In this document: positions 842 through 58,492 of the stretch, piece by piece
Layout of the letters: each line of letters begins with the position of its first letter
How positions within the stretch are numbered: the stretch's first letter is position 1
IMG/VR virus record: IMGVR_UViG_3300036766_001076
Span: 1-63,197 of that record
DNA: 63,197 bases
DNA from: a virus
Lineage: Duplodnaviria; Caudoviricetes
Reading direction: 5' to 3' (one strand)
Position numbers and translations under genes: made by a program
Notes under the pieces: model-generated
Told to the model about the DNA's origin: nothing
Seen by the model: only the letters and a program-made list of their open reading frames with translations
Databases searched by the model: none

Positions 842-1619
842 GTTTGCACACCGTACAATCTTCAACGACTGCCTCCGGGAAATCCTCCGGGTGCACTGAT
901 GCAATCAAAGTACCCCACGCAAACCGACGGCCGAGTCCGAGGATACGTGACTTCCCGTTGGCGAGCGCCTGTGCCTCCATTATCGTAGCCCGTGCGGACA
1001 GCTCAGGATGTCGTAGATGCAGTTCGAGTATCTCGGGCTTTGTACTCGACGGGCAGTAGAAACAGGCCGACTTCGGCGGGATCGGTAGTGATTCCGCGTG
1101 AATACGCCGAACGCATTCATCACGATCCCACTTCCAGTCGATCAGTGGATACACCTTGGTGAAGCCTTTGTCTCCGGCTTCGGTCATTCGTTCTTCTTCA
1201 CCGAACTCAAACCCGATTGCGCGTTGTACAAGCGTACCTGCCGCCCACGCAAGTTGCGCTGGCGCCCATTGAGCAGCCCACCATTTGAAGGGGTCAATCT
1301 TCCATTTGTCCGCGCAGGTCGAGTATCCGTACGCTCGCGAAGGCATATAGCCGAGGCGCAGACACTCTTCTTCCAATGATCGATCACCGGTCTTGGTCCG
1401 CCCGAAATCCGCTCGGCAGACTGTCGTCAGTGGCGGGAAATCATTTGCGGCCAACCACACAGGAAGAATCTGGCGAAGGTAGAAGTACGTCTCTGGTTTC
1501 TCTCCGCGAGTATCGGCGAACACGATAGCATCGGGACGGTAGCCGTGAATCTTCATCCCTATGCACATCGCCAACGAGTCTACCCCGCCGCCGTACGAGA
1601 CCACCAATGGATCAGACAT
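831..1619 (-). CDS. PAPS-reductase-like (PP-loop) protein, probably DNA-modification associated
   Basis: VVSYGGGVDS PP-loop, FADTRGEKPETY, CADKWK, YPLIDW, KSACFYCP. Confidence 0.8.
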   Translation of the reverse strand: MSDPLVVSYGGGVDSLAMCIGMKIHGYRPDAIVFADTRGEKPETYFYLRQILPVWLAANDFPPLTTVCRADFGRTKTGDRSLEEECLRLGYMPSRAYGYSTCADKWKIDPFKWWAAQWAPAQLAWAAGTLVQRAIGFEFGEEERMTEAGDKGFTKVYPLIDWKWDRDECVRRIHAESLPIPPKSACFYCPSSTKPEILELHLRHPELSARATIMEAQALANGKSRILGLGRRFAWGTLIASVHPEDFPEAVVEDCTVCKHGS

Positions 1620-2022
1620 GCGCGATCTCCCCATACGGTTTGACTTCGATCATTCGTCAATACGTGTGTAACCGGCCTCGAACGCCTTTGCAGGGCTGAA
1701 GGACATATAGCCGTCGTCGTAGAGTACGAAGTAACCACCGATTTGTGGCTTGTGCTTCTTCAGATATGGTACATCCACGCGAATCGGCTCTATACCTTCT
1801 TCGACGGGCACAATGTGCGCGCCGTGCAGGCCGATGACGGAGCCGTCGGGCAAAATCTCCACGACCTCATCCTGATCAAGCGCCCGTTCGATTTCGGCAA
1901 TCGAAGGCTGTTCAAGGCGTGCCGTAATGGCCTTGATCTTCACTGCACGGACTTCCTTATGGCACTTGTACCGAGGCATGTCAGACATGGGCGATCTCCC
2001 TGTATGGTTTGACGTCGATCAT
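1612..2022. repeat. 42-bp imperfect direct repeat (1612-1653 and 1981-2022) flanking the 1650-1988 gene
   Basis: 37/42 identical; copies encode MIEVKPYGEIAHV* and MIDVKPYREIAHV* on the minus strand. Confidence 0.9.
1650..1988 (-). CDS. Conserved phage hypothetical protein
   Basis: MPRYKCHKEVRA...GGYFVLYDDGYMSFSPAKAFEAGY, a common small phage protein pattern. Confidence 0.75.
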   Translation of the reverse strand: MSDMPRYKCHKEVRAVKIKAITARLEQPSIAEIERALDQDEVVEILPDGSVIGLHGAHIVPVEEGIEPIRVDVPYLKKHKPQIGGYFVLYDDGYMSFSPAKAFEAGYTRIDE

Positions 2023-3249
2023 CCCCTTGAGCGGCCGGGCCTGCGCCTTGATCCGCTCGCGCAGGAGCACTGGCACCACCGACTTGGTCGCATATTGAAA
2101 CGCCTCGTCATCATCCGCCGGGTGCTCTTGGAGAAATTCTTCCAGTTGCTCTTTCGCTTCTGCCTCAGCGCGGGTTGTCTCGTACCAACAGAGCTGCTCG
2201 CGGGAGAGCTTCACCGGCCGGTGCAGCCAGCGCGGCCCTTGCTCCTCGGCTCGTCGAGCGTGCGCAAGCGTCGTGAGTGAAGGGGACCAGCCCACCGGCG
2301 CTGGCAACCAATGCCTCGACGCCTCCGCGTACCATGGAATGAAAATGTTGTGCGCGCGGGATTTGCCGGACTTGGCAAGCTGCCACTCCAGCCACCACCA
2401 GTTGGTTTTGCCCCGCCCTTGGGCGGTCGATTCCCGCATCCAGAAGGTCAGAGGAGAAACCGCCACCGCTGGCTTGAGCGACACGTCGATCTGCTCAGGC
2501 CGGGTCCAGGTCGCCAATTCTGAATTGTGAATGCAGCTCAGGGTTTTCCCGCGAGCGAGCTGACCCTTGAGGCCGTCCTGCGCGTTCCTCCCGGATTTGT
2601 CCGCGCCGCGGGTGGATTTGGAGGCTCCCCAAAAGAGATGAGACTCCGTGCCGAACAAAAACAAGTCGTTCTTCACCCGCTCTTTCGCGGTCGGCTTCAT
2701 GTACCACGGCAGGTGATCGTAAATCCGCTCGAACATGTCCCAGAGGAAGTCGGAGGAGTCTGGGACATCTGAGGCGAGAAGCCCAAACACGTTCGCGTGC
2801 GTGAGGAGACGATGCGCGAGGATCGCGATGGACAGGGTAGAACCTCCTACCTGTCTGTCCTTGAGCAAATTGACAACGATCCCGTCCGGGTGCCCCTGCT
2901 CGTAGTTCGCCCATTCGACCCTGGCGATCTCGGCGAGGATCAGTTTCTGCGTCTCCCACAGCGGGTAGAGCTTCCCGAGTGCCTGCCCGCCGATGTTGAT
3001 CGTGGTGTACCGCTCCGAGAAATACTTGAAGTCGATCTTGCCGAGGATCTGCTCGTTGACCACAAACGCCTGCTCAGCTTTGGAGAGCGGCCGGGTCTGC
3101 GCGCCTTTCCGGTCCCAGAGGTCCGCCATGCGGAATTGGAATTCCTTGACCTCTTCCACGGAGAATTCCTGCAGTCCGCGCGGGAGATCCTGCGCGAGGG
3201 TACGCTCGACTATTCCACGGCGGATCGCAACGAGTTGAGAGGAGTACAT
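1981..3249 (-). CDS. terL: Large terminase N-terminal ATPase domain
   Basis: LKDRQVGGST (Walker A variant), IHNSE (Walker B), ESTAQG, FIPWY, QEHP...AF; probable start MYSSQ at 3249. Confidence 0.85.
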   Translation of the reverse strand: MYSSQLVAIRRGIVERTLAQDLPRGLQEFSVEEVKEFQFRMADLWDRKGAQTRPLSKAEQAFVVNEQILGKIDFKYFSERYTTINIGGQALGKLYPLWETQKLILAEIARVEWANYEQGHPDGIVVNLLKDRQVGGSTLSIAILAHRLLTHANVFGLLASDVPDSSDFLWDMFERIYDHLPWYMKPTAKERVKNDLFLFGTESHLFWGASKSTRGADKSGRNAQDGLKGQLARGKTLSCIHNSELATWTRPEQIDVSLKPAVAVSPLTFWMRESTAQGRGKTNWWWLEWQLAKSGKSRAHNIFIPWYAEASRHWLPAPVGWSPSLTTLAHARRAEEQGPRWLHRPVKLSREQLCWYETTRAEAEAKEQLEEFLQEHPADDDEAFQYATKSVVPVLLRERIKAQARPLKGMIDVKPYREIAHV

Positions 3250-3268
3250 CTGCGACCCTGTGACGGTC

Positions 3269-3661
3269 TCAGAGGAGCGTCTTCGGGAGGTACTGCTCCA
3301 GGTACGGCCCGGCCCACAGGAAGAAGTCCACAAGCGTATCCCCGGCCGGGAGGTACGCCAGAAACCTCTCCACGCCCTCGTAGAGCAGGCGTAGCGCCGC
3401 GTTCGGATTCTCAGCGATGACCCCGCGCTCCTCGGCCACGAACGCATCGACCTGGGCCATTTGATCCGCCGTGAGGTAGTCCACCCCGAAGGCATGCGCC
3501 GCGCGAACGCCGGTTTCAATCGCGAACAGCGTGTCTGTCGCGATCTGGCGCTGACCGGCGCTGGTGTGCGGATCGTGCGTGGCCTTGAAGGTCGCGCAGC
3601 CGGAGAAGCAGAGGAGCGACGCGAGGAGCATCAGGAGCCGTAGCGGGAGCAACCGTTTCAC
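3269..3661 (-). CDS. Putative lipoprotein, possibly lysis or spanin related
   Basis: Hydrophobic leader ending in lipobox-like FSGC; GTG start overlaps upstream stop. Confidence 0.5.
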   Translation of the reverse strand: MKRLLPLRLLMLLASLLCFSGCATFKATHDPHTSAGQRQIATDTLFAIETGVRAAHAFGVDYLTADQMAQVDAFVAEERGVIAENPNAALRLLYEGVERFLAYLPAGDTLVDFFLWAGPYLEQYLPKTLL

Positions 3662-3885
3662 AGTCCCTCCTTGGGCGCCGCCGCAGGCCCAGGCACCGTC
3701 GCATCCCCGTCGCCGTTTGGCCCGCCCTTCCCGCGCATGGCCACGAGCAGCCCAGTAAAAGACCCGATCATGATGTCCTCGCCTTTGACCAACCCGAGTT
3801 TGGTCATGCCCGCGCCGATGAGGGTGAGCAGAAGCAGGATGAGAATGTGCCCGCCCCGGGTGTCGAGTGCGGCGAGGAGTTGCAT
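3658..3885 (-). CDS. Small two-TM membrane protein (holin candidate)
   Basis: Two hydrophobic segments and a hydrophilic C-tail, in a membrane-protein cluster. Confidence 0.5.
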   Translation of the reverse strand: MQLLAALDTRGGHILILLLLTLIGAGMTKLGLVKGEDIMIGSFTGLLVAMRGKGGPNGDGDATVPGPAAAPKEGL

Positions 3886-3888
3886 GGT

Positions 3889-4092
3889 CTATTTCTCCCA
3901 GTAGAACGATTTGGTGTAGGCAGGCCATTCGCCAAGAATAATCGACTTGAGCGTTTGGATCTCCTGATCGCGCTTCTGGTCCTCGACCGCGTGCGCGCCG
4001 ATGGTCCGGTACGCCCAGCCGCCGAGTGAGAGGAGCCCGAGGAGAATCGGCCAGTAAGGCAGCCAGCCTGCGAGCCCGGATTTCTTCGGCAT
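3889..4092 (-). CDS. Small membrane protein
   Basis: One TM segment WLPYWPILLGLLSLGGWAY. Confidence 0.6.
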   Translation of the reverse strand: MPKKSGLAGWLPYWPILLGLLSLGGWAYRTIGAHAVEDQKRDQEIQTLKSIILGEWPAYTKSFYWEK

Positions 4093-4117
4093 GGCTGATT
4101 ACTCTACCACGGCTTCG

Positions 4118-4207: not shown

Positions 4208-4989
4208 TCCCCGGTCACCTCGCCCTCGACCACGCCGTCGGCATTCGAGGTCTGCATCTTCGAGAGCCGATCCCGCCCGGAGCCGTAGAGCGCGGTATCG
4301 AGCGCCCCGACCAGCCGGTCGTAGGTGTCGGCCTGGACCATCCCGGACATCTGCGCGTTCTGCTGTAGAACAGAGATATGGGTACCTGATGCCTTTTCGA
4401 CCATCTTACCCATTTTGAGGGCCAGCTCCCGCACAGGAGTTTCTGGTACGAAATATGTCTGGCCTGTACCTCGACAGACCGTGCAGGTCACCTCCGCCGG
4501 GGGGCCGTCCGGTGTCGGGTCACCAGCCACAAGCCCGAGGCCCTGACATGCACGACAGGCCCGATTGCCGGGAATCGCGTCTTCCATCACGCCGAGCGCG
4601 ACCTGCGGGAGCTTCTCCGCCACCTTCAGCGAGGCTCTGGCTTTTCCTCTGGCCATCGACGCCGCGGTGATCTTCTCGTAGAGCCCCGCCTTGTCAATCT
4701 TGAGCTGGTGGCACAGCCGCGCGAGCGCCACCCGGTCGTTCGCCGGGTCTGCGAGCGACGCCAGGAGCATGTCTTCTTTCTGGCCATGCTGAGTGACCGC
4801 GAGGAGTTCGACAAACGCCGCGCGCCCGCCGACCTCGGACTCGACCGCCGCGAAGGCGATCTCTTCGAGCTTGGTGACATGGCGCTCGGTTGGAGCGGGA
4901 GCAGGCTTGGCGATGACTTGCAGAGCCGCGCGCTTGGCCGGAGGCGGCGTCTCGCGTGCAGGGCGGCGACCGGGCGGCGGGAGGAGCAT
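4204..4989 (-). CDS. Zn-finger protein, small terminase candidate
   Basis: Two CxxCxGxG motifs; lies upstream of terL; acidic C-terminus VVEGEV. Confidence 0.45.
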   Translation of the reverse strand: MLLPPPGRRPARETPPPAKRAALQVIAKPAPAPTERHVTKLEEIAFAAVESEVGGRAAFVELLAVTQHGQKEDMLLASLADPANDRVALARLCHQLKIDKAGLYEKITAASMARGKARASLKVAEKLPQVALGVMEDAIPGNRACRACQGLGLVAGDPTPDGPPAEVTCTVCRGTGQTYFVPETPVRELALKMGKMVEKASGTHISVLQQNAQMSGMVQADTYDRLVGALDTALYGSGRDRLSKMQTSNADGVVEGEVTGE

Positions 4990-5321
4990 TACGCACTCCC
5001 TCCTTCTATAGTGAGATTCCCCTCGCGGTCCACCCACCCACGCTTCTCTGCCAAGGCCTCGATATCGGTGAGGTCGTCCACAACCTCACCCGAGAGCCGG
5101 GCGTGCTCACGTAGAAACTCCAACCGGCCGAACCCGGCGTCCACCCCTGCGAACGCCGCCCCGAAGTCTTCTACGCCGTCCTCGCCCCTGGCCGTGTAGA
5201 CCGGCCGACGCCCGGCCTGAATCCGCAGCTCGTCGATGAGTTCTTCGAGGAGCTGGTTCTGGCGTGAGAACAACTTCACCAGGTTGCGAAGCAGGCGCAG
5301 CGTCAGCCACCAGCCTTTCAT
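4989..5321 (-). CDS. Hypothetical protein starting MKGWW (copy 3)
   Basis: ATGA overlap with upstream stop. Confidence 0.65.
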   Translation of the reverse strand: MKGWWLTLRLLRNLVKLFSRQNQLLEELIDELRIQAGRRPVYTARGEDGVEDFGAAFAGVDAGFGRLEFLREHARLSGEVVDDLTDIEALAEKRGWVDREGNLTIEGGSA

Positions 5322-5443
5322 CGCTGCCACGCCTTGAACCACTCGAGGATGGCCCAGCGATAGTGACCGTCCCGCCAGTTCAACCGCGTCATCATAATGT
5401 AGAGGCGGAAGGTCAGCCAACGCCGGAGCCACCAGCCTTTCAC
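5318..5443 (-). CDS. 41-aa Trp/Arg-rich peptide starting MKGWW (copy 2)
   Basis: GTG start; MKGWWLRRWLTFRLYIMM...; stop/start overlaps at both ends. Confidence 0.55.
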   Translation of the reverse strand: MKGWWLRRWLTFRLYIMMTRLNWRDGHYRWAILEWFKAWQR

Positions 5444-5658
5444 AGGGATCGGCCCTTCGTATATTGCCAACCGCGCGTTTCGTGCGGGCGCAGGTGCGTC
5501 AACCGCTCACGTACACCGCACCAGCGGCACGCTCGGTAGTTCCATGATCGATCTCGCCCAAGGGTACATGTAACCCAGTCGTGGCGACCGCAGAGGCAGA
5601 TCAGCCGCTCCTTAACATAGAGTAGCCACGCAAGCGCCAGCGTCCACCAGCCTTTCAT
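5440..5658 (-). CDS. Small Cys/His protein starting MKGWW (copy 1)
   Basis: CLCGRHDW...CRWCG; ATGA overlap. Confidence 0.6.
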   Translation of the reverse strand: MKGWWTLALAWLLYVKERLICLCGRHDWVTCTLGRDRSWNYRACRWCGVRERLTHLRPHETRGWQYTKGRSL

Positions 5659-6382: not shown

Positions 6383-6403
6383 TTGAAAATTGAAAATTGA
6401 AAA
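6383..6403. repeat. TTGAAAA x3 A-tract repeat
   Basis: Direct reading; AT-rich island in the divergent intergenic region. Confidence 0.8.
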
Positions 6404-6573
6404 TTTGATTGTGGGGATCTCGACGCTCTTCTCGTAGGCCCGGCGCTGTCACCTATAGCGGACAATTCACCGCTGCACTATCTATTCATGTACGTACATG
6501 CGCGGCGTGCAGCGGGCCGGGCAGCCCTGCCAGGGCCAGATCCATATTTACCAGAATCCAACCGGTCTAAGTT

Positions 6574-6699
6574 GCCCTCGCCCTCGCCCTCGCCCTCGCC
6601 CTCGCCCTCGCCCTCGCCCTCGCCCTCGCCCTCGCCCTCGCCCTCGCCCTCGCCCTCGCCCTCGCCCTCGCCCTCGCCCTCGCCCTCGCCCTCGCCCTC
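6574..6699. repeat. (GCCCTC)21 perfect hexamer tandem repeat
   Basis: 126 nt; copy number may be assembly-limited. Confidence 0.95.
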
Positions 6700-6700
6700 A

Positions 6701-6759
6701 GTCCAGAAATGGGACATCGCCGCTCGCCTGTTATATGGGTCCAGAAATGGGACATCGCC
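6701..6759. repeat. 21-bp direct repeat GTCCAGAAATGGGACATCGCC (6701-6721 and 6739-6759)
   Basis: Exact match. Confidence 0.9.
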
Positions 6760-6864: not shown

Positions 6865-6918
6865 TATTTGGCCGGGACGCAATCCGGCCAAGTCGACCAA
6901 GGAAAGGGAACGGCACGT

Positions 6919-7461
6919 ATGACGAAGGAGCAGGAGAGGCAGGCAGCGGAAGGCCAGTCTGCCGCGCCCGTGGACGCCCCGACCGCCCTCTCGACCGTGC
7001 CGACGTACGCGATCGTCGTCGGCGGGACGCGGTACCCCGTCGCGTCGCTGCAGGACGCTTCCGAGAAGTTCTCGTACGTGCGTGAGCGTGTGCAGGAAGA
7101 ACAGGGGCCACGCGCGGCCACGATGCACAACGTCGCGCCGGCCGTCATCGAGGAGAATGGCAACCCCATCGGGTACGTGGCCTTTAACGGCCGCGTGTTC
7201 GCTGGCCCGCCGCAGACGTGGACGAAAGACACCCCGATCCTGTACGACCCGCGCCCGTCGGCGCCTGCCGCCACGACCGGCGCGTTCAAGGCCAGTGCAA
7301 GCTCGGCAATCCGCTGGGAAACCGCGACGTTCACTTTCAAATCCCATCCGTCTGACCGCCGAGCAGGTACAGGCGTATGGCGCCAAGATCGACACCGGAC
7401 ACGCGACCGCCGCAGACGCGCGCAAGTAGGGCAATCACGCCCATCACAAGGAACGGCACGT
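6919..7461 (+). CDS. Early hypothetical protein (3' end uncertain)
   Basis: RBS plus ATG at 6919; frame stays open into the 7462 gene; an alternative +1 frame tail stops at 7429. Confidence 0.5.
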
Positions 7462-7719
7462 ATGACGAAGGATGACCGACTGCGCGACGAATTGATGGGG
7501 CTGACGCACGATACCGACTGTCCCGACTGCCACATCCGCGCCGAGAGCCGGACGTGCGAGGACTGCGGACGCACGCTGACGATCACCGACTGCGGCCACT
7601 ATCAGCAGCCGCGCCCGATTGCCGCGAGTCAGTATCAGGGCCACGGTTACGCCTGTGCGGCCTGTGAGCAGGCCCGCGCGACGGCCGTCCGCGACGACGC
7701 GATCGACGACGACCGGTAA
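7462..7719 (+). CDS. Small Cys-rich Zn-binding protein
   Basis: Own RBS and ATG inside a 23-bp repeat; CPDC, CEDC, CAAC. Confidence 0.65.
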   Translation: MTKDDRLRDELMGLTHDTDCPDCHIRAESRTCEDCGRTLTITDCGHYQQPRPIAASQYQGHGYACAACEQARATAVRDDAIDDDR

Positions 7720-7776: not shown

Positions 7777-8913
7777 ATGTCTACCATCACCACTGCCGCA
7801 CGCGAGTACGCCTCACGGCCGGCCGACGAACGCTTCGAGAGCGTCTCGGCACTGGTCACACACGCGTTGACCGAACGCCAAGCGTCAGCCGAGCGCAACT
7901 ACAATCTCAAGGATCTGCGGATCGTCGCCGGACGGGAGAATCAGGCGTACGGTAGCGTCCCCGCGACGACGCTCAGACTCGCATCGCCCAAGGGCGAAGC
8001 CAATTTCACCCATTGGAGCTTTGGCCAGCTTTGCCGCAGCTTGGGCGCGCCCGCCTCATACCTCCGCGAACTCCCGCCCACCATCGCCGCCGACGCGCTC
8101 AATTTCGGCCTGCAAGACTCGCCAGTCGGAACCGCGGCCAACCTGCTCGTACGCGCGCCCAACGGCCGACCCGAACCCACGCTGCGGGCCTGCACGTCGG
8201 ATTCCTACGGCCGGATGTATGACTCGGAACTGTACGACGCCGTACAGAAGCAGATCATCGGATACGATCCTCCGATAGGGGATGCGCAATCGCTGACGCG
8301 CAGTGATCGGGACTCATTCGTCATCTTGACAAACAAACAGAGCGTCATCACCGATCCCTCGCTGATCAACACCGCCGCCGACTGGACCAATAGCGGCCCG
8401 GATGGCGGCCCGGTGATGTACCGCGGGATCCTGCTCCGAAACTCCGAGGTCGGCGCTGCGTCAGTCACCATCGACACGATCCTCTACCGTTGCCGCTGCA
8501 AAAATCGGATGTCTTGGAGCAGCGGCAAGGATCGATCCTTCCGGCGCCGGCACATCGGTACGCACGTACTGCGAGACGTGATACGGCAAATTGCCACGAT
8601 CGCGCGTGAATGGACGCAGCAGAGCGCCGCGCGAGACGAGGCGATCATCCGTGGGCTGATCAGCCACGAGCTCGCCGCGACCAAGGACGCGGTTGTCGAC
8701 GAACTCCGCGCGATCGGCTACACCAAGGACCAGGCGACCGAGGCGTACGAGACCTGTGAGCGGAAGGAGAACGCCAGCCCGCGCAGCTTCTGGGGCATCG
8801 CGCAAGGGACGACACGGAACAGCCAGACGACCGAATGGCAGGACGATCGGTACTTGCTCGACCAGCTCGCGGCCAAAGTGCTGGCGCGTGGGGCGAAGCT
8901 GGTAGCGGTGTAG
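7777..8913 (+). CDS. DUF932/DUF945-like protein
   Basis: THWSFGQLC...PASYLRELP, RGILLRNSEVG, RRRHIG. Confidence 0.7.
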   Translation: MSTITTAAREYASRPADERFESVSALVTHALTERQASAERNYNLKDLRIVAGRENQAYGSVPATTLRLASPKGEANFTHWSFGQLCRSLGAPASYLRELPPTIAADALNFGLQDSPVGTAANLLVRAPNGRPEPTLRACTSDSYGRMYDSELYDAVQKQIIGYDPPIGDAQSLTRSDRDSFVILTNKQSVITDPSLINTAADWTNSGPDGGPVMYRGILLRNSEVGAASVTIDTILYRCRCKNRMSWSSGKDRSFRRRHIGTHVLRDVIRQIATIAREWTQQSAARDEAIIRGLISHELAATKDAVVDELRAIGYTKDQATEAYETCERKENASPRSFWGIAQGTTRNSQTTEWQDDRYLLDQLAAKVLARGAKLVAV

Positions 8914-10658: not shown

Positions 10659-10977
10659 GGCGCAGAGAATCATTGACGTGCTCACGATCCTCGCGCTAGG
10701 GGTACTGGGGTACCTCTGGCTGATAGGAGTCATGCTGCTATGACCAAATACTTTGTCCGCTTCAAGTTCGTCCGTACCGGCCACGTCATCGATCAGGCGT
10801 TTGGCTCCATGACGGAACGGGAGATCATGATCATCACCTTGGCGAGTACCGCCGTGGTACTGGACACATGGGAAGCCTGATGATCTGTCAATGTTGCGGC
10901 CAACGCATCGGGTACAAACGTGTAGGGTCCGGCCTACTTCTCTGCGTCCTCTGCTACCTGTACCTCAAGGCTCAACG

Positions 10978-11415
10978 ATGATTCTCCGCGAACTCAAAAT
11001 CCTGTACGCCCCCGGTCGCCGAGTCGACCACGACAACCGCCGAGCCTGCACACAACCGCGCGACGCCGCAGCGATCTTGATCCCGCTATTGCAGGACCAG
11101 CCCTCCGAGGTATTCGCGGTACTCCTCTTGGACACCCGCTTGCGCGTGCTCGCCTTCCACGAATGCGCCCGTGGTCAGCTCGCCGGAGTCAACATCGAGC
11201 CTAGGGAGGTATTCCGGCCGGCCATCATCACCAATACTCACACGCTCATACTCGCGCATTGTCACCCGAGCGGAGATCCGACGCCCAGCCCGGACGATGT
11301 AGCACTGACCGTCCGGATGCAGACGGCCGGCGTGCTACTGGGGATTGAGATCCAAGATCACATCATCGTTGGACACGAGAGATATTGGAGTTTCAAGGAC
11401 GCCGGACAACTATGA
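10978..11415 (+). CDS. radC: RadC-like JAB domain protein
   Basis: EVFAVLLLD, PREVF, AHCHPSGDPTPSPDD, DHIIVG. Confidence 0.9.
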   Translation: MILRELKILYAPGRRVDHDNRRACTQPRDAAAILIPLLQDQPSEVFAVLLLDTRLRVLAFHECARGQLAGVNIEPREVFRPAIITNTHTLILAHCHPSGDPTPSPDDVALTVRMQTAGVLLGIEIQDHIIVGHERYWSFKDAGQL

Positions 11416-19198: not shown

Positions 19199-19447
19199 AT
19201 GCCTCTCCCAGTGGATCAACTCGTGGCCGACTTCGGCCTGTCAGGGCTGAAGATGCTCAACGCGATCATGGGCGAGGGGTATAACCCGCTCGAAGAACCC
19301 AAGGATCTGATCACGCTGCAACTCCTTGGGCTGGGCATCGGGAAAGCCCTCGCGGGCGGGAACACTGACCAGATGTTCAAGAATTTGCGCGCCGTGGTCG
19401 ACGCGCTCGATGTCACACCGATTGAGGAGTTAATGGATAGGCTATGA
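19199..19447 (+). CDS. Hypothetical protein
   Basis: Starts MPLPVDQL. Confidence 0.6.
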   Translation: MPLPVDQLVADFGLSGLKMLNAIMGEGYNPLEEPKDLITLQLLGLGIGKALAGGNTDQMFKNLRAVVDALDVTPIEELMDRL

Positions 19448-21105
19448 TCATGACCAACGACGCTGTTTCGCAGATGGCGGAGGCTGTTGCAGTTTTACCC
19501 GCCTTGCCCGCGCAAGACATCGCAGCCAAAGCCGCCGAAGATCGGCTCGCCGAACTGCTCTCGCTCGGCTCCCAAGCCAACGCCGCAACGTGTGTCTACG
19601 GCGACACCGGCACCGGAAAAACCCGGCTCCTCTGTACCGCTATCGAGTACAACTGGGAGACGTATCATCGTCTCTCGCGCGTGCTCACGGTGGATCTGGG
19701 CGGCTTCGGCAACAAGTTGCTCTCGCTGATCCGTCTCGGGATTGCGCAAGTCTACAACCCGACCACGCACATCGAGCCGTTCGAGACCTTCGAGCTGGTC
19801 TCGCTCGGGTACTGGCCGGAGACGATCTCCGATCCCTACACCGGCTACGCCGACCCGCATGTCCGGCTTATCGCACCGCGCGTGAAACGCTGGTCGATCT
19901 ATTGCCCGAGCGGGCATCTGGTCCGGACCCTCACCGATGGGAGAAACCTTTACGGGTTCCAGGTCGCCTGCCCGACGTGTCAGCAGATCACCTCCCCGGC
20001 GAACTGGTCCAAGTGCGATCAGCAGACCGTGATCTCCCCCGGGTTCAAGCACGTCGGGCTCTGGGCGTTCGACTCGATGACCGCGCTCGAAGAAGGCGTC
20101 ATGGCGGACATGGCGAACCGCAAGGATCTCGGTGGCGAAAAAGGCGCGATCAACACGATTGTCTCCGGAAGTATGTCATTCGGGAGCAACAACCGGGCGC
20201 ATTACGGCTTCGCGCAGAACCGGGCCTACCAGTGGATCAAGAACGCCCGGACCATTCCCGGACAGACGATGCCGCCGATCTTCACGTTTCTCGAGCTGCG
20301 CGCGGCAGACGAAGGGAAAGGAATCCCGCTCTTCGGGCCGAAGATCGCGGGCAACGCGAAGACCGCCGATGTCCCGAGCTGGTTCGGCAACTGCCTGAAC
20401 TCCACCAAGGAGAAGGATGAGAAGGGTCGGGATGTCTACCGTCTCTACACCGAGACGCACATGAACCTCTTGGAGGGCAACATCCCGCATGTCGCGAAGA
20501 CCAGGGCCGACCCCGGCGCGTTTGTCCCGCCGTATTTGCAGGACCAGGACGGCGAGCAGCCATTCACGACGTTCTCGCTGGCGTACTTCTTCCGGACGCT
20601 GGACGTCGCGCTGGAGCGGAATACCCGGCAGGACGCGGCGAAATATCAGGACGCTCCGGCGTTCCAGCCGTTCGCGGATGACGACAAGGAGGAAGTGGTC
20701 GAGGAGACCACGCTCGGGACCGGCCCGGCGATGATCTCGGCGGCGGGAGCGGTCGTCCCGCAGGGCGCGGCCGGGGCGGTGGTTTCGCGAGCGCGCGGCC
20801 GTGCAGCCGGACGGCCAGCCTTGCCGCCGCCGGTGCAGGCTCCTACGATTTCTCTGCCAAGTCCAAGTTCGGCACCGGGGCCGTCTCCGGCAGGTCCGGC
20901 GGTGGTCGCCCAACCGGTGCCGACGGGCGGACCTGCGGCTCCTGTTGCTGGCCCGGCGGCGATGCTGCCGACGGGGGTTCAGGGTCCGCAGACTCCGCCC
21001 GCGTTGCTGACGCCGCCGACGGGCCCGGTCGCGGCTCCGGTTCGACCGAGTCGGGCGCGTGCGCGGCCGGCGGTTCCACCCCCCGCCGGGGCGAAGACAT
21101 CATAG
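19444..21105 (+). CDS. AAA_24/Sak4-like ATPase with Zn-ribbon insert and Pro/Ala-rich tail
   Basis: YGDTGTGKT, FDSMT, GPKIAG...VPSWF; CPSGH...CPTC insert. Confidence 0.75.
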   Translation: MIMTNDAVSQMAEAVAVLPALPAQDIAAKAAEDRLAELLSLGSQANAATCVYGDTGTGKTRLLCTAIEYNWETYHRLSRVLTVDLGGFGNKLLSLIRLGIAQVYNPTTHIEPFETFELVSLGYWPETISDPYTGYADPHVRLIAPRVKRWSIYCPSGHLVRTLTDGRNLYGFQVACPTCQQITSPANWSKCDQQTVISPGFKHVGLWAFDSMTALEEGVMADMANRKDLGGEKGAINTIVSGSMSFGSNNRAHYGFAQNRAYQWIKNARTIPGQTMPPIFTFLELRAADEGKGIPLFGPKIAGNAKTADVPSWFGNCLNSTKEKDEKGRDVYRLYTETHMNLLEGNIPHVAKTRADPGAFVPPYLQDQDGEQPFTTFSLAYFFRTLDVALERNTRQDAAKYQDAPAFQPFADDDKEEVVEETTLGTGPAMISAAGAVVPQGAAGAVVSRARGRAAGRPALPPPVQAPTISLPSPSSAPGPSPAGPAVVAQPVPTGGPAAPVAGPAAMLPTGVQGPQTPPALLTPPTGPVAAPVRPSRARARPAVPPPAGAKTS

Positions 21106-25107: not shown

Positions 25108-25295
25108 TCGATCCCCACGACGTGATCGTCACTGTGGCCTGGGCCGTCGTCGCGGTCTGCGCGGTGCAGGCCGCGCTCGTCTACGGGGTGACGCGGTTGT
25201 TCCTGCACGGGCCGATGTTCAAGGCCAAGCAGGAGCGGGAGCGAGAGCATACCTACGAGCCGATTCAGGGGGAGTTCGGTGGACGTACACGATAA
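25098..25295 (+). CDS. Small membrane protein
   Basis: One hydrophobic segment. Confidence 0.5.
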   Translation: MAVIDPHDVIVTVAWAVVAVCAVQAALVYGVTRLFLHGPMFKAKQEREREHTYEPIQGEFGGRTR

Positions 25296-25953
25296 GCAGA
25301 TCATTCATTCCTCTGACGAGAGCAACTGGCGGACGCCGCCGGAGCTTTTCGAAGCCCTCGACAGGGAGGTCAAGTTCTGCATCGATCTCGCAGCGAACGC
25401 GCAGAACTACTGCACGCGCAATAATCAGAGCGACGACAGGCACCGATGGCTCGGTCCTGGATCGGGCGTCAGTACCCCCGACGCGCTCTCGGTTGATTGG
25501 ACGGCGTTGGTACAGTCGTTCAATGACCTCGATGACCTACGGCAGTTACCGCCCGGATTCCTCAACCCGCCCTACTCTCGCAAGAAGTACCGCGCGACCA
25601 AAGACCCGGCGATGCTGGTGGAGAACTGGGCACGGAAAGCCTACGAGGAGTCGATCAGGGGGTTTACGACCTACGGCCTGTTCCCGTTCGCACCACAGAC
25701 AGGCTGGTTTCGGGAGTTCGTCTACGGCCATCGATACGAACAGAACATCATGGGCGAGCGTCTTGCAGCGAACGAGTGGTCCGGCCATGCCGCAATGGAA
25801 GTCCGGCGTTTCCCGTACCGCCTCTCCTTCCTCCGCCCGGATGGCTCCCCCGCGCAGAATGCCGGCGTGAACTCCTGCGTGATCATCTGGAAACCCAATC
25901 CTGGGTACGTGGGGCCGTGGGTACCGACGGAGAGATATTGGAGTTTCAAATGA
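25279..25953 (+). CDS. Phage DNA N6-adenine methyltransferase (Dam family)
   Basis: WRTPPELF, IDLAA, FLNPPYS, TGWF. Confidence 0.88.
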   Translation: MDVHDKQIIHSSDESNWRTPPELFEALDREVKFCIDLAANAQNYCTRNNQSDDRHRWLGPGSGVSTPDALSVDWTALVQSFNDLDDLRQLPPGFLNPPYSRKKYRATKDPAMLVENWARKAYEESIRGFTTYGLFPFAPQTGWFREFVYGHRYEQNIMGERLAANEWSGHAAMEVRRFPYRLSFLRPDGSPAQNAGVNSCVIIWKPNPGYVGPWVPTERYWSFK

Positions 25954-27138: not shown

Positions 27139-27444
27139 ATGCTTCCGAAACTCCAGAAACCTCTCCCGCCACTTACACTCTCCTCCTACTATCCGAATGT
27201 GTACCTTCGGATGGAATGGTACGAAACCTATTGGCGTCCGCTGCGCGGCGGTCCGTGGGAACTGCACGATGCCCTAGATCATGTAGACGAGCCTATGTGG
27301 GAAGCGATGCAGGAGACATTCAACTGCGGTGGTGTGATCAACCTCATGAACCGGGCGACGATACGTACGGGTCCGATGTGGTCAAACCGGCGGCACCAGA
27401 CAACTCATGCATCTATGCGCGTCCGCTACGGCCATGCTACCTAA
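27139..27444 (+). CDS. Hypothetical protein starting MLPKLQKP
   Basis: GGAGG RBS; ORF. Confidence 0.6.
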   Translation: MLPKLQKPLPPLTLSSYYPNVYLRMEWYETYWRPLRGGPWELHDALDHVDEPMWEAMQETFNCGGVINLMNRATIRTGPMWSNRRHQTTHASMRVRYGHAT

Positions 27445-27904
27445 GCTCCAAAAACCGCGCGGTCAGCGCTTTCAGGGCAGGACGTACTGTGTCAATCGCC
27501 GTATGCTGCGCGATCTGTACGCTTCTGGTTTAAGTACACGACAGGTAGCCGCACAGATGGGCTGTCGTGAGACAATAGTATGTAAGGTTTGCAAAGACAT
27601 TATTCGGGACAAAAGCAGCGCCGCGCGTCTCCGTCGACCACCTACGAGTAAGCATTGGCGGTCTGCTCGCCAACAAGCCCGTCGAAAGATGGAACGACAT
27701 CTCGGACGCAGACTGTGCCGAGAGGAACACGTACATCACAGGAACGGTAACTATACTGATCAGAGATTAGAAAATCTGGTGGTTGTCTCTGCGGCTGATC
27801 ATGCACGCATTCACCATCCAGCAAATCCAATTCCCCGACATCTTCGTCCGGAGCGGCAAGCGTACATGAAGAAGTACCTTGTCAATTACCGTCGTGCTTC
27901 CTAA
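27434..27904 (+). CDS. HNH homing endonuclease with N-terminal HTH
   Basis: MERHLGRRL...HVHHRNGNYTDQRLENL...HARIH; lower GC. Confidence 0.88.
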   Translation: MLPKLQKPRGQRFQGRTYCVNRRMLRDLYASGLSTRQVAAQMGCRETIVCKVCKDIIRDKSSAARLRRPPTSKHWRSARQQARRKMERHLGRRLCREEHVHHRNGNYTDQRLENLVVVSAADHARIHHPANPIPRHLRPERQAYMKKYLVNYRRAS

Positions 27905-30900: not shown

Positions 30901-30944
30901 CGGAAGACGAGGAAGAGATTCAAGCGTTGGAGCGGAGGGTGTAA
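27894..30944 (+). CDS. polA: DNA polymerase family A with N-terminal family-4 UDG domain and 3'-5' exonuclease
   Basis: UDG: CTNC, GESSG, PFIGAAG, HPSHLQR; Exo: DIET, NKWYD, YAAVD; Pol: DYRGVE, KRTVHGKNYG, IHDS. Confidence 0.93.
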   Translation: MLPKYTKPTHGPNGGLGCTNCDLHKAGFGFVPASGPATAPLLFIGESSGYHEAIEGIPFIGAAGGLFGRILRRSSLERDNVRVHNCLSCRPPEDWLEGAPWEFSAINHCSQYLSETLNEPHKVVVTLGGTALRTVLGLQGYSGVRVQDFHGTVHRDPADRFWVIPTFHPSHLQRGALNLLDVVRFDLSIAQRLVRDGGITRRPVSVLQDPPVDFFAAWVERYLAASSVDPDAVPLAVDIETNDKAGGRDEGELTADDTSTEITRWNFSCNPDEGITVPDHEAYRPLIAKLLAAPGVKYLWNKWYDRSRILLHGYQVGGEWLDLMWAAKHRQSDLPLGLGFWAPFYSDYGAWKHLGKLQGREAEYAAVDGLQTRRVGDGLVGELVQRGLWDAFYRHNHELEQEVLRPAYDVGVLVDKDRLNAFHTKLDRIAGEKLEELKKAEAAGSLRPKNGYAKKPKGDPPIPPASILGKKKGKERTSKDEYVESGVHLVDRPLDVGVRVCRTCGAVEVGPKHDCLRAARKRDVEGAGGSRPLPDIATEVRTVRRWFWSLPFNPDSPQQILRYIKETGSQPGRAKKTRKDTTDKKTLRKLAAQTGDLIYSTILDYKAVKKVDSTYALGSLRRIWADGRLHPQYTFRPSTFRLSYINPNITNVVADKDGKESLAAGFRACIVAAPGCRLLEVDYRGVEAVETGWCCGDPDYVRLASLGVHAFVTSFVIGKPASLSWSDDDLAMYFADIKKHYPLEYDRCKRTVHGKNYGLTIYGMVENFPETYPSLKIAQQYEDLYYQVATKLSPWHKMLRDRAHEHGFLGGPPSANYGQLISSGQHHPFGYQHWFWGVLAYQPISAAELHHMKRQGRSNWCLIQGRPFKVKYGEDSKRCIAFFPQSTAAGVLKEAMLRLFHRESPSYIGDAYYGRTPLRAPIHDSLLLEIPDAKFDLVASIIINEMQRPILEQPIPPEWGRGTHLAVGVAAKTGRDWEAMEDLAVPKVLYVPTESTEYLGECAEDEEEIQALERRV

Positions 30945-55080: not shown

Positions 55081-56136
55081 TTAGCCGTTGATGCCGAAGA
55101 GCTGCCGTTGCAGCCGGGACGAACGGCAGGTCACGTTGCCGCCGAAGAGGATCTGGCCCGCGACCGTGGTCGAGTCCTGCGCCACCTTGAAGCCGGTGAA
55201 GCCGAACTGGAACTTGGTCGAGGTCGAAATCCGCAGTTTGAGGTACGCGTCCTCGCCCTCGGGGCCGGGGTTGAGCCACCAGAAGGTCTCGGTGGCGTTG
55301 TTGTAGTTGCCCAGATCGGCGTCGTTCACGCCGTCGGCGCCGGGGCAGTACTGCGACTCGATGATTGTCGCCTGCTTGAACTTGACCCCGACGTAGCCGA
55401 TGGTCGGCTCGATCGCGTCGACAACCTGATGGGGCTGGAAGTTCTCCGAGATGTAGCCCATCGTCCGGTTGGTCGTGACGCCGATGACCGGATGCTCGGC
55501 ACCGAGCACGAGTGACTGGTACGTGTGTTCGAGTGCCCGGAAGGTGATCGCACCCGCGAGGTTCGAGTTGATGAGGCCGACCGGGGTCTTGATCGCCGCC
55601 CCGACATCCGCGCGGACCTGCGATCCGTAGGACGAGAAGGCCGAGCCTTCCCAGCCTGCGTTGGTGCCGTCGTTGAGGGCTTCATCCAGCCCGTTCAGCA
55701 TGATCGAACGGTCGGTCCCGCCGACATTCTGCCCGTTCTTGTAGAGGTCGATGGCGAGAATCGCCGACATGGTGAGCGCGGCGTTCCCGAGGTCCGTCTT
55801 GACCATCGAGAGGACGGCGGTGGACCCGTTGACCTCGATCTCGATCTCTTCGAGGAGTTCGGGCACTGACACCTGGTAGTAGCGCGGCGTGAACTGCAGA
55901 CCGGCGAAGGTCTGCCGCTTGGAGATGTCGAACCCGCCGACGCCCTTGGCGTAGGCTGAGCCCTTCATCGGCTTGAAGAGGAAGTTCTCCTGCACGAGCG
56001 GGCCGCCGGGGTACTTGTGGACCCGGCGCTTCAGGAACTCCAGCAGTGGATCGTTCTTGAAGAAGTTGTCCGCCAACCCCGGCATGATGTTCTTCGTTGC
56101 CGCGGTGTTGACGGGATCCAGATTGGGCGCTGCCAT
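55081..56136 (-). CDS. Major capsid protein
   Basis: 351 aa; DNFFKNDPLL...GG...NGLDEAL...RLQ; follows the scaffold gene; strongly biased codons. Confidence 0.85.
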   Translation of the reverse strand: MAAPNLDPVNTAATKNIMPGLADNFFKNDPLLEFLKRRVHKYPGGPLVQENFLFKPMKGSAYAKGVGGFDISKRQTFAGLQFTPRYYQVSVPELLEEIEIEVNGSTAVLSMVKTDLGNAALTMSAILAIDLYKNGQNVGGTDRSIMLNGLDEALNDGTNAGWEGSAFSSYGSQVRADVGAAIKTPVGLINSNLAGAITFRALEHTYQSLVLGAEHPVIGVTTNRTMGYISENFQPHQVVDAIEPTIGYVGVKFKQATIIESQYCPGADGVNDADLGNYNNATETFWWLNPGPEGEDAYLKLRISTSTKFQFGFTGFKVAQDSTTVAGQILFGGNVTCRSSRLQRQLFGING

Positions 56137-56198: not shown

Positions 56199-56939
56199 CT
56201 AGACCTTGGCGAGTTCAGCCTCGACGGTGGCCACGGCCGCCGCGAGGGTGTGATCGTCTGCGACTTGCTTGTCGGACTTGCGCAGCCCGTCCAAGGTGGA
56301 CGGTCCGCCCGGCCCGACCGGGTACGGCCCTTTCTGGTTGAGCGCCTGCATTCGGCCTTCGAGAATGCCGGCGGCTTTCGCGTCCTCGACCTGCTTGGTC
56401 ACTGCCGCGTCGGCCCGCTTTTTCCGCTCCGGGGCGACGATCTCGGCGTAGTGCTGGACGAGGGTCTTCTTGCCCGCGATGGCGTCCTTGGCGAGCTTGT
56501 CCATGTCGATGGTCTCGCCGAACTCCTTGAGGTGCGAGAGGCCAATGTTGGTCATGGTCGCGCCGAGGGCGACGCCCATCGCTTCCATGCCGTTGGTCAG
56601 TTCCGAGAGCCGGGTGTCGAGGGCTTTCTCGTCGATGCCGCCGGGGTTGTGCGTGCCCCCTTTGGTTTTGAGTTCCTCGATGGTCGCTTCGAGCGCGGTG
56701 CGTTCGTTCGACTTCCACCACGTGGTCTGTTTGTCGGCGATGTCCTTCAGGCGCGCCTGTTCCGCGCGCACCGCATCCGCGAGGCGCGTGGATTCCGCCC
56801 GCATCAAGGTCGATTCGCCCGCGAATTCGAGGACGGTGTCGTCTTCGAGGATCGCGGCCTGCTGCTCGGCGGAGAGCTTGGACCGCTTGAGGAGTTCTCC
56901 GACGAAGTCGCGTCCGGCGTCGATCGCTTTGCCTGCCAT
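56199..56939 (-). CDS. Scaffolding protein
   Basis: Charged helical protein upstream of the capsid gene. Confidence 0.65.
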   Translation of the reverse strand: MAGKAIDAGRDFVGELLKRSKLSAEQQAAILEDDTVLEFAGESTLMRAESTRLADAVRAEQARLKDIADKQTTWWKSNERTALEATIEELKTKGGTHNPGGIDEKALDTRLSELTNGMEAMGVALGATMTNIGLSHLKEFGETIDMDKLAKDAIAGKKTLVQHYAEIVAPERKKRADAAVTKQVEDAKAAGILEGRMQALNQKGPYPVGPGGPSTLDGLRKSDKQVADDHTLAAAVATVEAELAKV

Positions 56940-57030: not shown

Positions 57031-57570
57031 TCACGACGCGACCTCCGCAGGCACCGAGAGAACAACCTGCTTCGGTTCCGGTACATCACGGTAGAGCCGA
57101 TTGATTCGGCGGCATTCCTCCCAGTACTGTTCCGCGCGAATACGCCTGTCTTCGGACATTCCGTATCCTTGGCGCGGAATTGTCTGTAGATACCAACGCC
57201 CGAACTCAATGCCCAATGACGCGACGTGCCGTTTGTTGACCAAGAACGGAAAAATAGCCTCCAAGAAATACAACGCCCTGGCACCAGTCAAGGACCATCC
57301 CCAATACGTTGTGTTGGGGTGCGTCGCATCCTTTCGCACGATGACTGTCCCTCCGAACCACGCAGCCAGTAGTAACAACGGCTCCTTGTTTCGTTGCGAG
57401 ACGGAGGCACACATTCGGTACGTCGGACGTCCTGCGTACGGCCTCACTACTCCACGGTACAACGCCGGATCTCCTCGATAACGATTCCGCGCAGGCTTCC
57501 GTTGAATACCCACGCTACCTTCACCGTCAAAGAACCCTGCCGTCCATGCGCGTTCAAGTTCGGTTGCCAT
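57031..57570 (-). CDS. Free-standing LAGLIDADG homing endonuclease
   Basis: WTAGFFDGEGSV, VSQ, FGG, PFLVNK; lower GC. Confidence 0.88.
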   Translation of the reverse strand: MATELERAWTAGFFDGEGSVGIQRKPARNRYRGDPALYRGVVRPYAGRPTYRMCASVSQRNKEPLLLLAAWFGGTVIVRKDATHPNTTYWGWSLTGARALYFLEAIFPFLVNKRHVASLGIEFGRWYLQTIPRQGYGMSEDRRIRAEQYWEECRRINRLYRDVPEPKQVVLSVPAEVAS

Positions 57571-57962
57571 TAGGCCAACCTACCCTGTCCAAATCCTCCG
57601 CCGCTGAACTGGACGCCCGCCTGGGTGACGGACCCAGGAGGCGGAGATGAGGGTTCACCGCCGGGCATCATGGATGCGCCGGCCCCGGCCTGCGTCTCCA
57701 ATACCCGCGCGAGCGCGTTTTTGAGGATCCCGTCGCACTGGGCGATGTCATCCGCGATTTCCGGGACGGCCTGCGCGAGCGTGAGGAGACCTTCGGAAAG
57801 TTTCTGCCCGAGCATCAGGAGGCCGGAGAGGTCTGGTTGCTGCGGCGCTCCGGCTTGCGGACCGACGAGGGTCTGCATCGGGTTGGATTCCTGCGCGGCG
57901 GCCGGATCGGTCACGGGAGACGGCGGAGGCCCGTTGAGCGCGCCGGGGTTGAGGCCGGGCAT
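57570..57962 (-). CDS. Hypothetical Pro/Gly-rich protein
   Basis: TGATG overlap. Confidence 0.6.
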   Translation of the reverse strand: MPGLNPGALNGPPPSPVTDPAAAQESNPMQTLVGPQAGAPQQPDLSGLLMLGQKLSEGLLTLAQAVPEIADDIAQCDGILKNALARVLETQAGAGASMMPGGEPSSPPPGSVTQAGVQFSGGGFGQGRLA

Positions 57963-58207
57963 CAGGGGATCCTTTTCGAGCCGGAGGGGGTGTGAATGCC
58001 GTTGACCTTGCGCGGTACGTACGCGTCAGTATCCGATCCAGTCGGACGTGTAAGATGCTTGAGGGGCTGCGGAGTCTCCGGACCACCGGGGGCTTCCAGT
58101 TTGGCGGACAACCCGAGTGCTTCCCCAAGCCGATCAAAATTACGCACACGGCGCGGGGCAGGTCCAATACCCGTGGCTTTCGAAAGTGCCCTCATTGGAT
58201 CGGCCAT
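57962..58207 (-). CDS. Small basic protein starting MADP (paralog 2)
   Basis: Ends VNGIHTPSGSKRIP. Confidence 0.6.
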   Translation of the reverse strand: MADPMRALSKATGIGPAPRRVRNFDRLGEALGLSAKLEAPGGPETPQPLKHLTRPTGSDTDAYVPRKVNGIHTPSGSKRIP

Positions 58208-58402
58208 CTACTTGATCCCCTTCGTTCCCGACGCCGTGTGAATCCCGTTCACGTTCCTGACATCGTCAGCCGTGTACTGCCGCGCATCGAGTTCTCGCAC
58301 CGTCGGCGTGTGCGCACGCGGGGTCGGTGGCGCGAGCGGCGTCATGGATCGGGGCGTCGGTTCCACCTTGGGCTGCACGGCGCGCGGTGTGGGATCGGCC
58401 AT
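58208..58402 (-). CDS. Small protein starting MADP (paralog 1)
   Basis: Ends VNGIHTASGTKGIK. Confidence 0.6.
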   Translation of the reverse strand: MADPTPRAVQPKVEPTPRSMTPLAPPTPRAHTPTVRELDARQYTADDVRNVNGIHTASGTKGIK

Positions 58403-58492
58403 CTACTTCTTGCCGGTGACCGACTGCGTGTACGGCGTGCGAATCCCGCCGATCTTCTTGGACTTGGCTGACGGCTTGCGAATCATTGCCAT
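58403..58492 (-). CDS. 29-aa basic peptide
   Basis: MAMIRKPSAKSKKIGGIRTPYTQSVTGKK; AAGGAG RBS. Confidence 0.5.
   Translation of the reverse strand: MAMIRKPSAKSKKIGGIRTPYTQSVTGKK

Follow-up and report, generated by a model that had tools for sequence, protein, structure and literature searches.

Duplicated translation-start regions flank extra genes at five loci of a tailed phage genome from IMG/VR

The DNA studied here (the window; 63,197 nucleotides (nt), 62% G+C) is the whole IMG/VR virus record IMGVR_UViG_3300036766_001076, which Pfam and PHROG family scans attribute to a tailed phage. At five loci of the window, short direct repeats lie at the starts of neighbouring open reading frames (ORFs), which thereby share their first codons. 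These five sets of repeats had been pointed out in a preliminary description of the sequence, in which they were taken as a genome-wide pattern left by a capture mechanism targeting initiation regions. All five sets were found in place, and the presence of the translation-initiation site in the repeat was confirmed at every locus. Genes were called with our own codon-usage model and a few manual corrections, the calls being weak in the 9-15 kb and 31-34 kb regions; the family scans took in 77 ORFs.

At locus 2, three consecutive minus-strand ORFs, with starts at 5658, 5443 and 5321, begin with M/V-KGWW. ORF a (5440..5658, 72 amino acids (aa), Cys-rich) starts MKGWW in an ATGA overlap on the upstream gene, ORF b (5318..5443, 41 aa) uses the GTG of a GTGA overlap and also reads MKGWW, and ORF c (4989..5321, 110 aa) is the resident gene. 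The repeats, exact over 14-16 nt at 5305, 5427 and 5644, hold the upstream stop, the start and the KGWW codons, the stop overlap being either ATGA or GTGA. An MKGWWL start was present in two of the four non-self homologs of ORF c, namely the closest two (73% and 66% identity), and absent from the two at 49%. As the closest homologs begin in this way, the shared start is native to c. Past the repeat, ORFs a and b are alike (nt 16-105, with a score reached by 5 of 1000 codon shuffles); neither of them significantly resembles c.

In order to compare alleles, a metagenome scan was made and the Logan contigs of four runs were examined over positions 1-6560 of the window, hence without locus 3. The scan returned one contig only, L005 (1534 nt, 98.5% identity), in which bases 1-51 correspond to window 5694-5644 and bases 38-1534 to window 5442-3946. 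This contig lacks exactly ORF a and one repeat, with the joint inside the 14-nt repeat, which leaves the order b-c. Its left flank fits the first repeat and its right flank the second, and a single recombinant copy of the boundary repeat is thus left. Furthermore, a 643-nt contig of run X3 passes from 5426-5981 directly to 5303, 556 and 87 nt flanking a skip of 122 nt; this skip equals one repeat period, removes ORF b and leaves a-c. An independent contig of run X1, which spans 4903-6510 without difference, supports a-b-c. From these three contigs it was concluded that a-b-c, b-c and a-c all exist in nature. An assembly artefact at this locus was considered and rejected: usual assembly word sizes exceed the length of the repeats, and the X1 contig confirms its region independently.

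Locus 1 lies at the end of the gene for the terminase large subunit (terL, 1981..3249, 422 aa, in an open frame that extends to 3519). The minus-strand segments 1612-1653 and 1981-2022 are identical at 37 of 42 positions and consist of the terL 3' end and ATG-TCT-GA. The copy J1 (1981..2022) holds the final 13 codons of terL, the stop of which overlaps the ATG of X (1650..1988), a 112-aa accessory ORF belonging to phrog_11049, a PHROG of unknown function. In the other copy, J2 (1612..1653), the terL tail is repeated together with the ATG of Y, and the TGA stop of X falls within the first four bases. Y (831..1619, minus strand) encodes a PAPS-reductase-like PP-loop protein (phrog_424, E 2.9e-28). 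Any gene placed after terL starts with MSD, because an 8-base overlap with the last codons of terL forces it.

A search with terL gave two IMG/VR contigs, L002 and L003, of about 90-92% DNA identity. In L003 the order is terL-Z, without X or Y, and Z begins at the same ATG-TCT-GA and reads MSDAAPDV. In L002 it is terL-X-Z, again without Y, and Z reads MTDLPVLPDV. The window has terL-X-J2-Y-Z, where Z reads MAPDV. Both shorter forms were also carried by contigs of run X3, which lack Y (skips 836 to 1650 and 839 to 1980). J2 is identical to the terL tail of L003 at 40/42 positions and to that of L002 at 39/42, as against 37/42 for its own J1. Because J2 is nearer to the tails of the relatives than to J1, there is weak evidence that J2 and Y may have come from another lineage and not from an in-place duplication. 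At the joint, the end of X and the terL tail have only ATGA in common, which therefore indicates a microhomology-level join. The terL-Y-Z parent implied by such a join was not found: Y homologs in three other phage contigs do not adjoin terL. No Logan contig of the four runs covered the Y region (about 877-1533), a gap that is evidence neither way. Z (314 aa in L003) spans both ends of the record and had no Pfam or PHROG match; its interpretation as a split-off nuclease domain of the terminase was dropped, since known terminases align almost to the end of the 422-aa terL.

The 512-aa open frame first taken as terL turned out to be two genes. Between a 130-aa upstream ORF (3269..3661) and terL, at 3248-3274 on the minus strand, the window is about 190 bases shorter than its relatives, the extra bases being located at 686-899 in L002 and at 4085-4292 in L003.

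The preliminary description had foreseen precise loss by recombination between the copies, and relatives with empty sites. One-copy alleles were indeed found at locus 1 (L002, L003) and at locus 2 (L005, the X3 contig), with the locus 2 joints inside the repeat, and in this respect the description therefore stood.

At locus 4, on the plus strand, the starts at 27139, 27434 and 27894 encode M/V-LPK(L/Y)(Q/T)KP. The first ORF, m1 (27139..27444, 101 aa), had no family match and starts MLPKLQKP, a copy of the N-terminus of the polymerase downstream. The second, m2 (27434..27904), also starts MLPKLQKP and is an HNH endonuclease (Pfam HNH_3, E 9.5e-7, score 28.8 for a cut-off of 24.8, and three PHROG HNH families). 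The third, m3 (27894..30944), is the resident UDG-PolA DNA polymerase, which starts V-LPKYTKP. The TAA stop of m1 lies inside codons 3-4 of m2, and that of m2 inside codons 3-4 of m3. Between copies 1 and 2, 19 of 24 nt are identical and the five differences are all synonymous. The change from CCG-AAA in copy 1 to CCT-AAG in copies 2 and 3 is one of the synonymous kind and makes the TAA stop of the upstream ORF. A start of the form M[LI][APS][KR][FYL]xK[PAG] was found in 21 of the 25 best polymerase homologs and in 24 of 120 overall. As it is shared by 21 of the 25 best, the octapeptide is native to the polymerase, and m1 and m2 carry copies of it. Thus, the proposal that the intervening ORF uses the resident start, while the resident keeps a copy, was borne out for ORF c and for the polymerase.

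The same gene start has been duplicated elsewhere. In two of 34 more distant IMG/VR polymerase loci, the ORF directly upstream begins with the polymerase's own N-terminus. In L009, a 74-aa ORF before the polymerase matches it at 8/8 residues with a 22-base exact repeat, and the stop of this ORF likewise results from a synonymous change, in polymerase codon 2 (CCG to CCT-AG). In L020, a D12 adenine methyltransferase matches at 6/8 residues, its Pfam match beginning at residue 14, and the two copies use very different codons, for example AGT versus TCG for serine. These were the only upstream matches among 2738 upstream ORF starts; 2925 downstream ORF starts gave two matches, both mis-called polymerase starts. 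In addition, the four longest local repeats in 42 polymerase loci (398 kb) measure 30, 22, 22 and 18 bases. Start duplications account for two, namely the polymerase start in L009 and, in L034, a 22-nt repeat of ribosome-binding site (RBS) plus MDET around a 61-aa ORF; the remaining two look intergenic. Only examples were taken from a survey of 20063 'tight' ORF pairs, drawn from the window and the 42 loci, because self-matching of repeated entries made its shuffle control flawed. The synonymous-only differences at locus 4 may reflect copies that diverged as polymerase N-termini in different lineages, together with the need to place a stop; alternatively, they may reflect selection on the N-terminal peptide itself.

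The position of m2 directly before the polymerase fits a free-standing HNH ORF between conserved genes. This raises the possibility that homing endonucleases drive the whole pattern: an HNH enzyme would cut near conserved gene starts in endonuclease-free relatives, repair would copy the gene with its flanks, and synonymous recoding would protect the carrier. In line with this, m2 bears the N-terminus of the polymerase that it precedes, a second HNH gene (57031..57570) is located about 400 nt from locus 5, inteins or HNH domains are frequent in polymerase homologs, and free-standing endonuclease genes of T4 overlap upstream ORFs, for which translational coupling has been proposed (PMC2988022). 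However, loci 1-3 have no endonuclease gene, and neither m1, the L009 ORF nor the L020 methyltransferase is an endonuclease. Moreover, homing as such is a copying process and creates no duplications. As a general account, we consider it improbable.

In the polymerase homologs P0006, P0007, P0024, P0034, P0073, P0078 and P0088, intein or HNH domains were noted inside the gene, and the UDG-PolA polymerase family is a frequent target of selfish elements.

Locus 3, also on the plus strand, has a 23-nt exact repeat of RBS plus MTK at 6907 and 7450, which can be extended to 52 nt at 73% identity. The first copy (6907..6929; RBS and ATG-ACG-AAG-GA) starts t1 (6919..7429), and the identical second copy (7450..7472) starts t2 (7462..7719, 85 aa, Cys-rich). 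The small-domain family of t1 comprises widespread 80-110-aa domain proteins (89 matches at E ≤0.001), among the short members of which an MTK start was found in 2 of 59. A single homolog of t2 was found, with the start MATTHQ.

Within 6919-7719, t1 shows its coding potential in frame 0 up to about 7320-7340 and in frame +1 beyond, where a stop follows at 7427-7429. Frame 0, for its part, contains no stop across the second RBS and start and continues into t2. The frame change may stem from an assembly indel or a frameshift mutation, or t1 and t2 could be fused. Two other plus-strand genes, at 30944-31033 and 26860-27138, also start ATG-ACx-AAG-GA (MTKE, MTKD), like t1 and t2, and one of the two has an ATGA overlap on the polymerase stop. 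The 12 bases common to these MTK-type starts include AAGGAG just past the start codon; the chance of an in-register match of that length among 95 starts is about 0.02 by our own arithmetic estimate.

At locus 5, on the minus strand, a 17-nt exact repeat encoding K-stop-MADP is present at 58197 and 58392. ORF q (58208..58402, 64 aa, MADP...NGIHTASGTKGIK) has its junction copy at 58392-58408, and its paralog r (57962..58207, 81 aa, MADP...NGIHTPSGSKRIP) at 58197-58213. Besides the MADP start, q and r share a C-terminal motif, NGIHT-x-SG-x-K (z 6.1, 0/300 shuffles), and a small basic ORF upstream of them, p, ends with a related motif. In the distant contig L006, the portal of which is 60% identical, a p homolog is directly followed by the homolog of 57570..57962, without q or r. 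Locus 5 is best read as a tandem paralog array.

The relationship of q to r invites the reading that all five loci are tandem duplications, of an accordion type, in which the copies have diverged except at their ends. The presence of their C-terminal motif in p and the likeness of a to b past the repeat agree with it. Nevertheless, X/Y, t1/t2, m1/m2 and m2/m3 are similar only at the start (z -1.1 to 0.2 beyond it), and m1/m3 reach z 4.2 over 25 residues only. The families differ as well: X belongs to a PHROG, Y is PAPS-reductase-like, m2 is an HNH protein, m3 a polymerase and t1 a small-domain protein, and m1 and t2 match none. J2, for its part, has more bases in common with the terL tail of a relative than with J1. 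Tandem duplication at all five loci is thus very unlikely in our estimation, and a single origin for all of them, as had been supposed, did not hold up: q is a paralog of r, a resembles b in part, m2 belongs to the HNH endonucleases, and X has no relation to Y. The origins seem instead to be mixed, with a recombination scar at locus 1, paralog arrays at locus 5 and partly at locus 2, and a homing-endonuclease insertion at locus 4.

To compare the repeats with chance, local exact direct repeats (spacing 20-2000 nt, low-complexity arrays masked) were counted in the window and in 30 second-order Markov simulations. Three repeats of 14 nt were observed against a simulated mean of 0.73, two of 15 nt against 0.2, one of 16 nt against 0.03 and two of at least 17 nt against 0. 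Five of the eight exact pairs of at least 14 nt, at three loci, cross a start codon. The other three lie at 50419/50566 (an internal TTIVG), 11753/11786 (a 33-base tandem) and 61835/62047. In a second test, 95 start windows (-25 to +17) were compared in register over 39 bases, giving 4465 pairs with a mean of 10.6 identities out of 39 (standard deviation 2.9). At least 20 identities were reached by 5 of 173 adjacent same-strand pairs, versus 4 of 4292 other pairs. When the windows were shifted by +60, +90 and -60 nt, the counts were 1, 1 and 0 of the 173 adjacent pairs and 12, 10 and 3 of the others. From the excess over these shifted controls it was concluded that the pattern is real and specific to starts, as the preliminary description had expected. 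Its description of the pattern as genome-wide fared less well: five loci exist among about 95 called genes, but three of them lie within one 7-kb variable region beside terL, and the term is therefore too strong.

The duplicated segments reach 9-28 nt into the coding region and have lengths of 14, 17, 23, 24 and 42 nt, that is, no fixed length. No motif beyond the start codon was common to the repeats, and no flanking inverted repeats were found at the inserts. No promoter or terminator was found at the repeats; the three promoter-like and two terminator-like sites of region 700-7800 all lie off the junctions. Neither a transposase nor an integrase was present among the 77 ORFs scanned, and the family scans identified no candidate dedicated enzyme at or near the loci. 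A target-site duplication by a transposon or insertion sequence does not fit, there being no transposase among the scanned ORFs, no flanking inverted repeats and a variable duplication length.

Gene-sized differences also occur at other borders. Three of them separate L003 from the window: a 663-base insert near 62916, a 547-base insert near 59900-59920 and, at 4112-4212, a replacement of 100 bases by 2143. None of these three differences has a flanking duplication beyond a stop and RBS. It follows that confinement to gene borders is general and that duplication is optional. After the portal, L003 has an extra gene (10183-10705) that starts MLPGST, with no repeat at its borders.

These observations bear on the dedicated capture of genes proposed earlier, in which translation-initiation regions would be recognised and DNA inserted with a duplication. 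It is true that every duplicated segment crosses a start codon, with 9-28 nt of coding region, and that the polymerase start was hit in three lineages. Against this stand the lack of a shared motif, fixed length, inverted repeats, promoter or terminator, transposase, integrase or other candidate enzyme, the three further border differences without duplication, and the fact that selection alone predicts the same anatomy. We regard dedicated capture as highly improbable; a special mechanism is neither needed nor indicated, and no new enzyme is called for.

Another possibility is that the start regions are functional recombination linkers, similar to the PeSLs of T4-type phages (repeated promoter-terminator cassettes) or to the short conserved boundary sequences of the modular theory, and that they are kept for cassette swapping, circle excision and reinsertion. 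The occurrence of a-b-c, b-c and a-c with joints in the repeat would agree with this, as would the exact identity retained over 14-23 nt although the ORF bodies differ, the presence of a gene for a Sak4-like protein, and the Shine-Dalgarno-region crossover described for PeSLs (PMC2839356). On the other hand, each locus has its own repeat, and cassettes would be movable only within one site. In addition, homology has been lowered, the locus 4 copies differing at 5 of 24 nt and the L020 copies far more, and the survival of the repeats can be explained without second-order selection for evolvability. We hold this reading to be unlikely.

We favour general recombination with selection, because the repeats share no motif, length or enzyme and the inserted ORFs are mixed in kind and origin. 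Under this explanation, to which we assign a probability of roughly 60%, the repeats first arise as by-products of ordinary recombination at the borders of genes and then serve as its substrates, the genome being tightly packed and translationally coupled. The simpler alternative already named in the preliminary description, namely selection acting on insertions and tandem duplications, thus fits best.

The process may be pictured in three steps. First, a new ORF would arrive. At locus 1 this would be through an out-of-register join, at the level of microhomology, between relatives in the same infection, at locus 5 and partly at locus 2 through a tandem duplication, partial or whole, and at locus 4 through an insertion associated with a homing endonuclease. 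Then, the products that survive would be those that leave the initiation region of the downstream resident gene intact. If the left joint falls a few codons inside the resident, the newcomer would be translated from the resident start, and the duplicated start would flank the newcomer. Finally, the 14-42 nt repeats would recombine, one ORF being lost or gained together with one repeat, which would result in presence/absence polymorphism among co-circulating relatives. For this last step the natural alleles were observed, and the agent could be a phage annealing protein or replication slippage. A 553-aa protein (19444..21105, plus strand) has a Sak4-like annealing-protein match over residues 209-390 (phrog_124, E 1.2e-9) and is a candidate for short-homology recombination, its role at the repeats being hypothetical. 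The preliminary description had placed such an ATPase in a module with a nuclease and SSB. The Sak4-like match was confirmed, but the family scans identified no SSB or nuclease of a recombination module, and the module itself is not supported.

Several points weigh against the explanation by general recombination and selection. The direction, gain or loss, was resolved at no locus, and the alleles are known from assembled contigs, without frequencies. The X-J2-Y join of the window has no independent assembly support, and the contrast of 40/42 with 37/42 for J2 amounts to three bases. At loci 3, 4 and 5 no close-range relatives were found; IMG/VR searches anchored at 25279..25953, 56199..56939 and 7777..8913 returned none. 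The resident gene of locus 3 could not be named from the homologs of t1 and t2. Finally, the recurrence at the polymerase start, with the peptide kept through synonymous and, in L020, Ser-family changes, is more regular than one would expect from pure chance.

In a more far-reaching reading, 'start hitch-hiking', phages of this group would regularly gain ORFs fused to the first 3-9 codons of a well-expressed resident gene, with the start regenerated behind them; the process would be biased to initiation regions and would recur at the polymerase start in separate lineages. The bias could arise, for example, when template switching or break repair takes place at 5' ends that are occupied by ribosomes or have been cut by an endonuclease, and the recoding would be purely synonymous because selection would keep the copied N-terminal peptide. 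Taken as a whole, this reading seems to us quite unlikely.

Besides the genes described above, the family scans identified the portal (59904..62006), the major head protein (55081..56136), a Dda-like helicase, an RNA ligase, a Dam-type methyltransferase (25279..25953, plus strand) and a RadC-like protein (10891..11415, plus strand). The ends of the record form a terminal repeat (1-182 versus 63016-63197, 94% identity) and probably come from two variants in the sample. No close cultured relative was found: megablast of 15000-35000 against a phage collection gave no match, and in tblastn of terL against cultured phages the identity was at most 28%.

Long arrays of 6-, 9/15- and 12-base units were observed inside ORFs at 6574-6699, 9171-9610 and 18997-19206, where they encode Glu-Gly-like and similar low-complexity proteins. 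The Pfam TrAA12 match of 6478..6717 is probably due to low-complexity composition. A 20-base exact repeat, at 11377-11396 and 25930-25949 on the plus strand, links two genes 14.5 kb apart. Its product in the RadC-like protein is ERYWSFK, typical of the C-terminus in this family, and DAGQL comes next. In the Dam-type methyltransferase gene it encodes the final residues ERYWSFK, with the ATGA start of the next gene immediately after. From its position, this repeat looks like a recombination scar that may have given the methyltransferase a RadC tail.

In the study of phage mosaicism, it has long been asked how small accessory genes can come and go without disruption of tightly coupled operons. 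The window and its relatives provide base-level snapshots of this process, in which one and the same site is occupied by no extra gene, by one or by two. Should the pattern prove general, N-terminal codons common to neighbours would be a simple mark of recent gene gain in viral metagenomes, and shared N-termini of this kind would be flagged as uninformative on the protein's own function. It could also point to a design rule for the placing of genes in phage operons.

Phage mosaicism has been attributed to illegitimate recombination followed by selection (PMC3029335), and relaxed homologous recombination by phage annealing proteins is described as using short or diverged homology (PMC3945230, PMC5928155). 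As in these accounts, the joints in the window are at gene borders because other products would die. In the portions of these accounts considered here, duplicated start regions are not predicted as a regular product; the window shows that they can be frequent.

Edgell et al. (2010, PMC2988022) note for T4 that 5 of 12 free-standing endonuclease ORFs share bases with the ORF before them, and they propose expression by translational coupling. Like the free-standing endonucleases of T-even phages, m2 is an HNH ORF between conserved genes that overlaps its neighbour and has no clear initiation region of its own. The portions of that account drawn on here do not mention the target's first codons being copied onto the endonuclease ORF, as they are on m2.

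Arbiol et al. (2010, PMC2839356) show for T4-type phages that PeSLs reshuffle ORFans and give rise to circles. The likeness to the window lies in small ORFans of variable regions placed between repeated expression signals, with a sister that has one copy and recombination that deletes or inserts the ORF; the single-copy relative with its ORF missing is matched here at loci 1 and 2. In the excerpts of that work considered here, however, the PeSL is a composite element of some 100 bp, in which a sigma-70-like promoter is combined with a stem-loop terminator, and its motif is shared genome-wide, whereas the repeats of the window are starts of 14-42 nt without such sites and differ at every locus. 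Furthermore, mini-circles were shown for PeSLs, while the alleles of the window are known from contigs alone; for the Logan contigs, no joints leading back along the window were listed.

The extra genes of the mycobacteriophages Island3 and LRRHood offer a further comparison. In Island3, at genes 67/68, an extra gene lies between repeats of about 50-60 bp at 3' ends, and a sister phage has one recombinant copy (PMC3029335). In LRRHood, a 1.35-kb insert lies between 29-bp repeats located at a gene's end and upstream of the following gene (Pope et al. 2011, PMC3029335). In the relevant part of their text, these authors left gain versus loss open and invoked general recombination at short boundary sequences. 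As in these phages, direct repeats at gene ends flank an extra gene in the window, and a relative has one recombinant copy. In contrast to the 3'-end repeats described there, those of the window take in the resident's start codon and its first 3-9 codons, and the newcomer shares the N-terminus of the resident. The window also differs from these published examples in having five loci in one genome, with the start of one gene hit again in other lineages. A full-text literature search, which leaves out most subscription journals, found nothing on start-codon duplication in phages. The pattern in the window is a start-site variant of the known shuffling of genes between boundary repeats.

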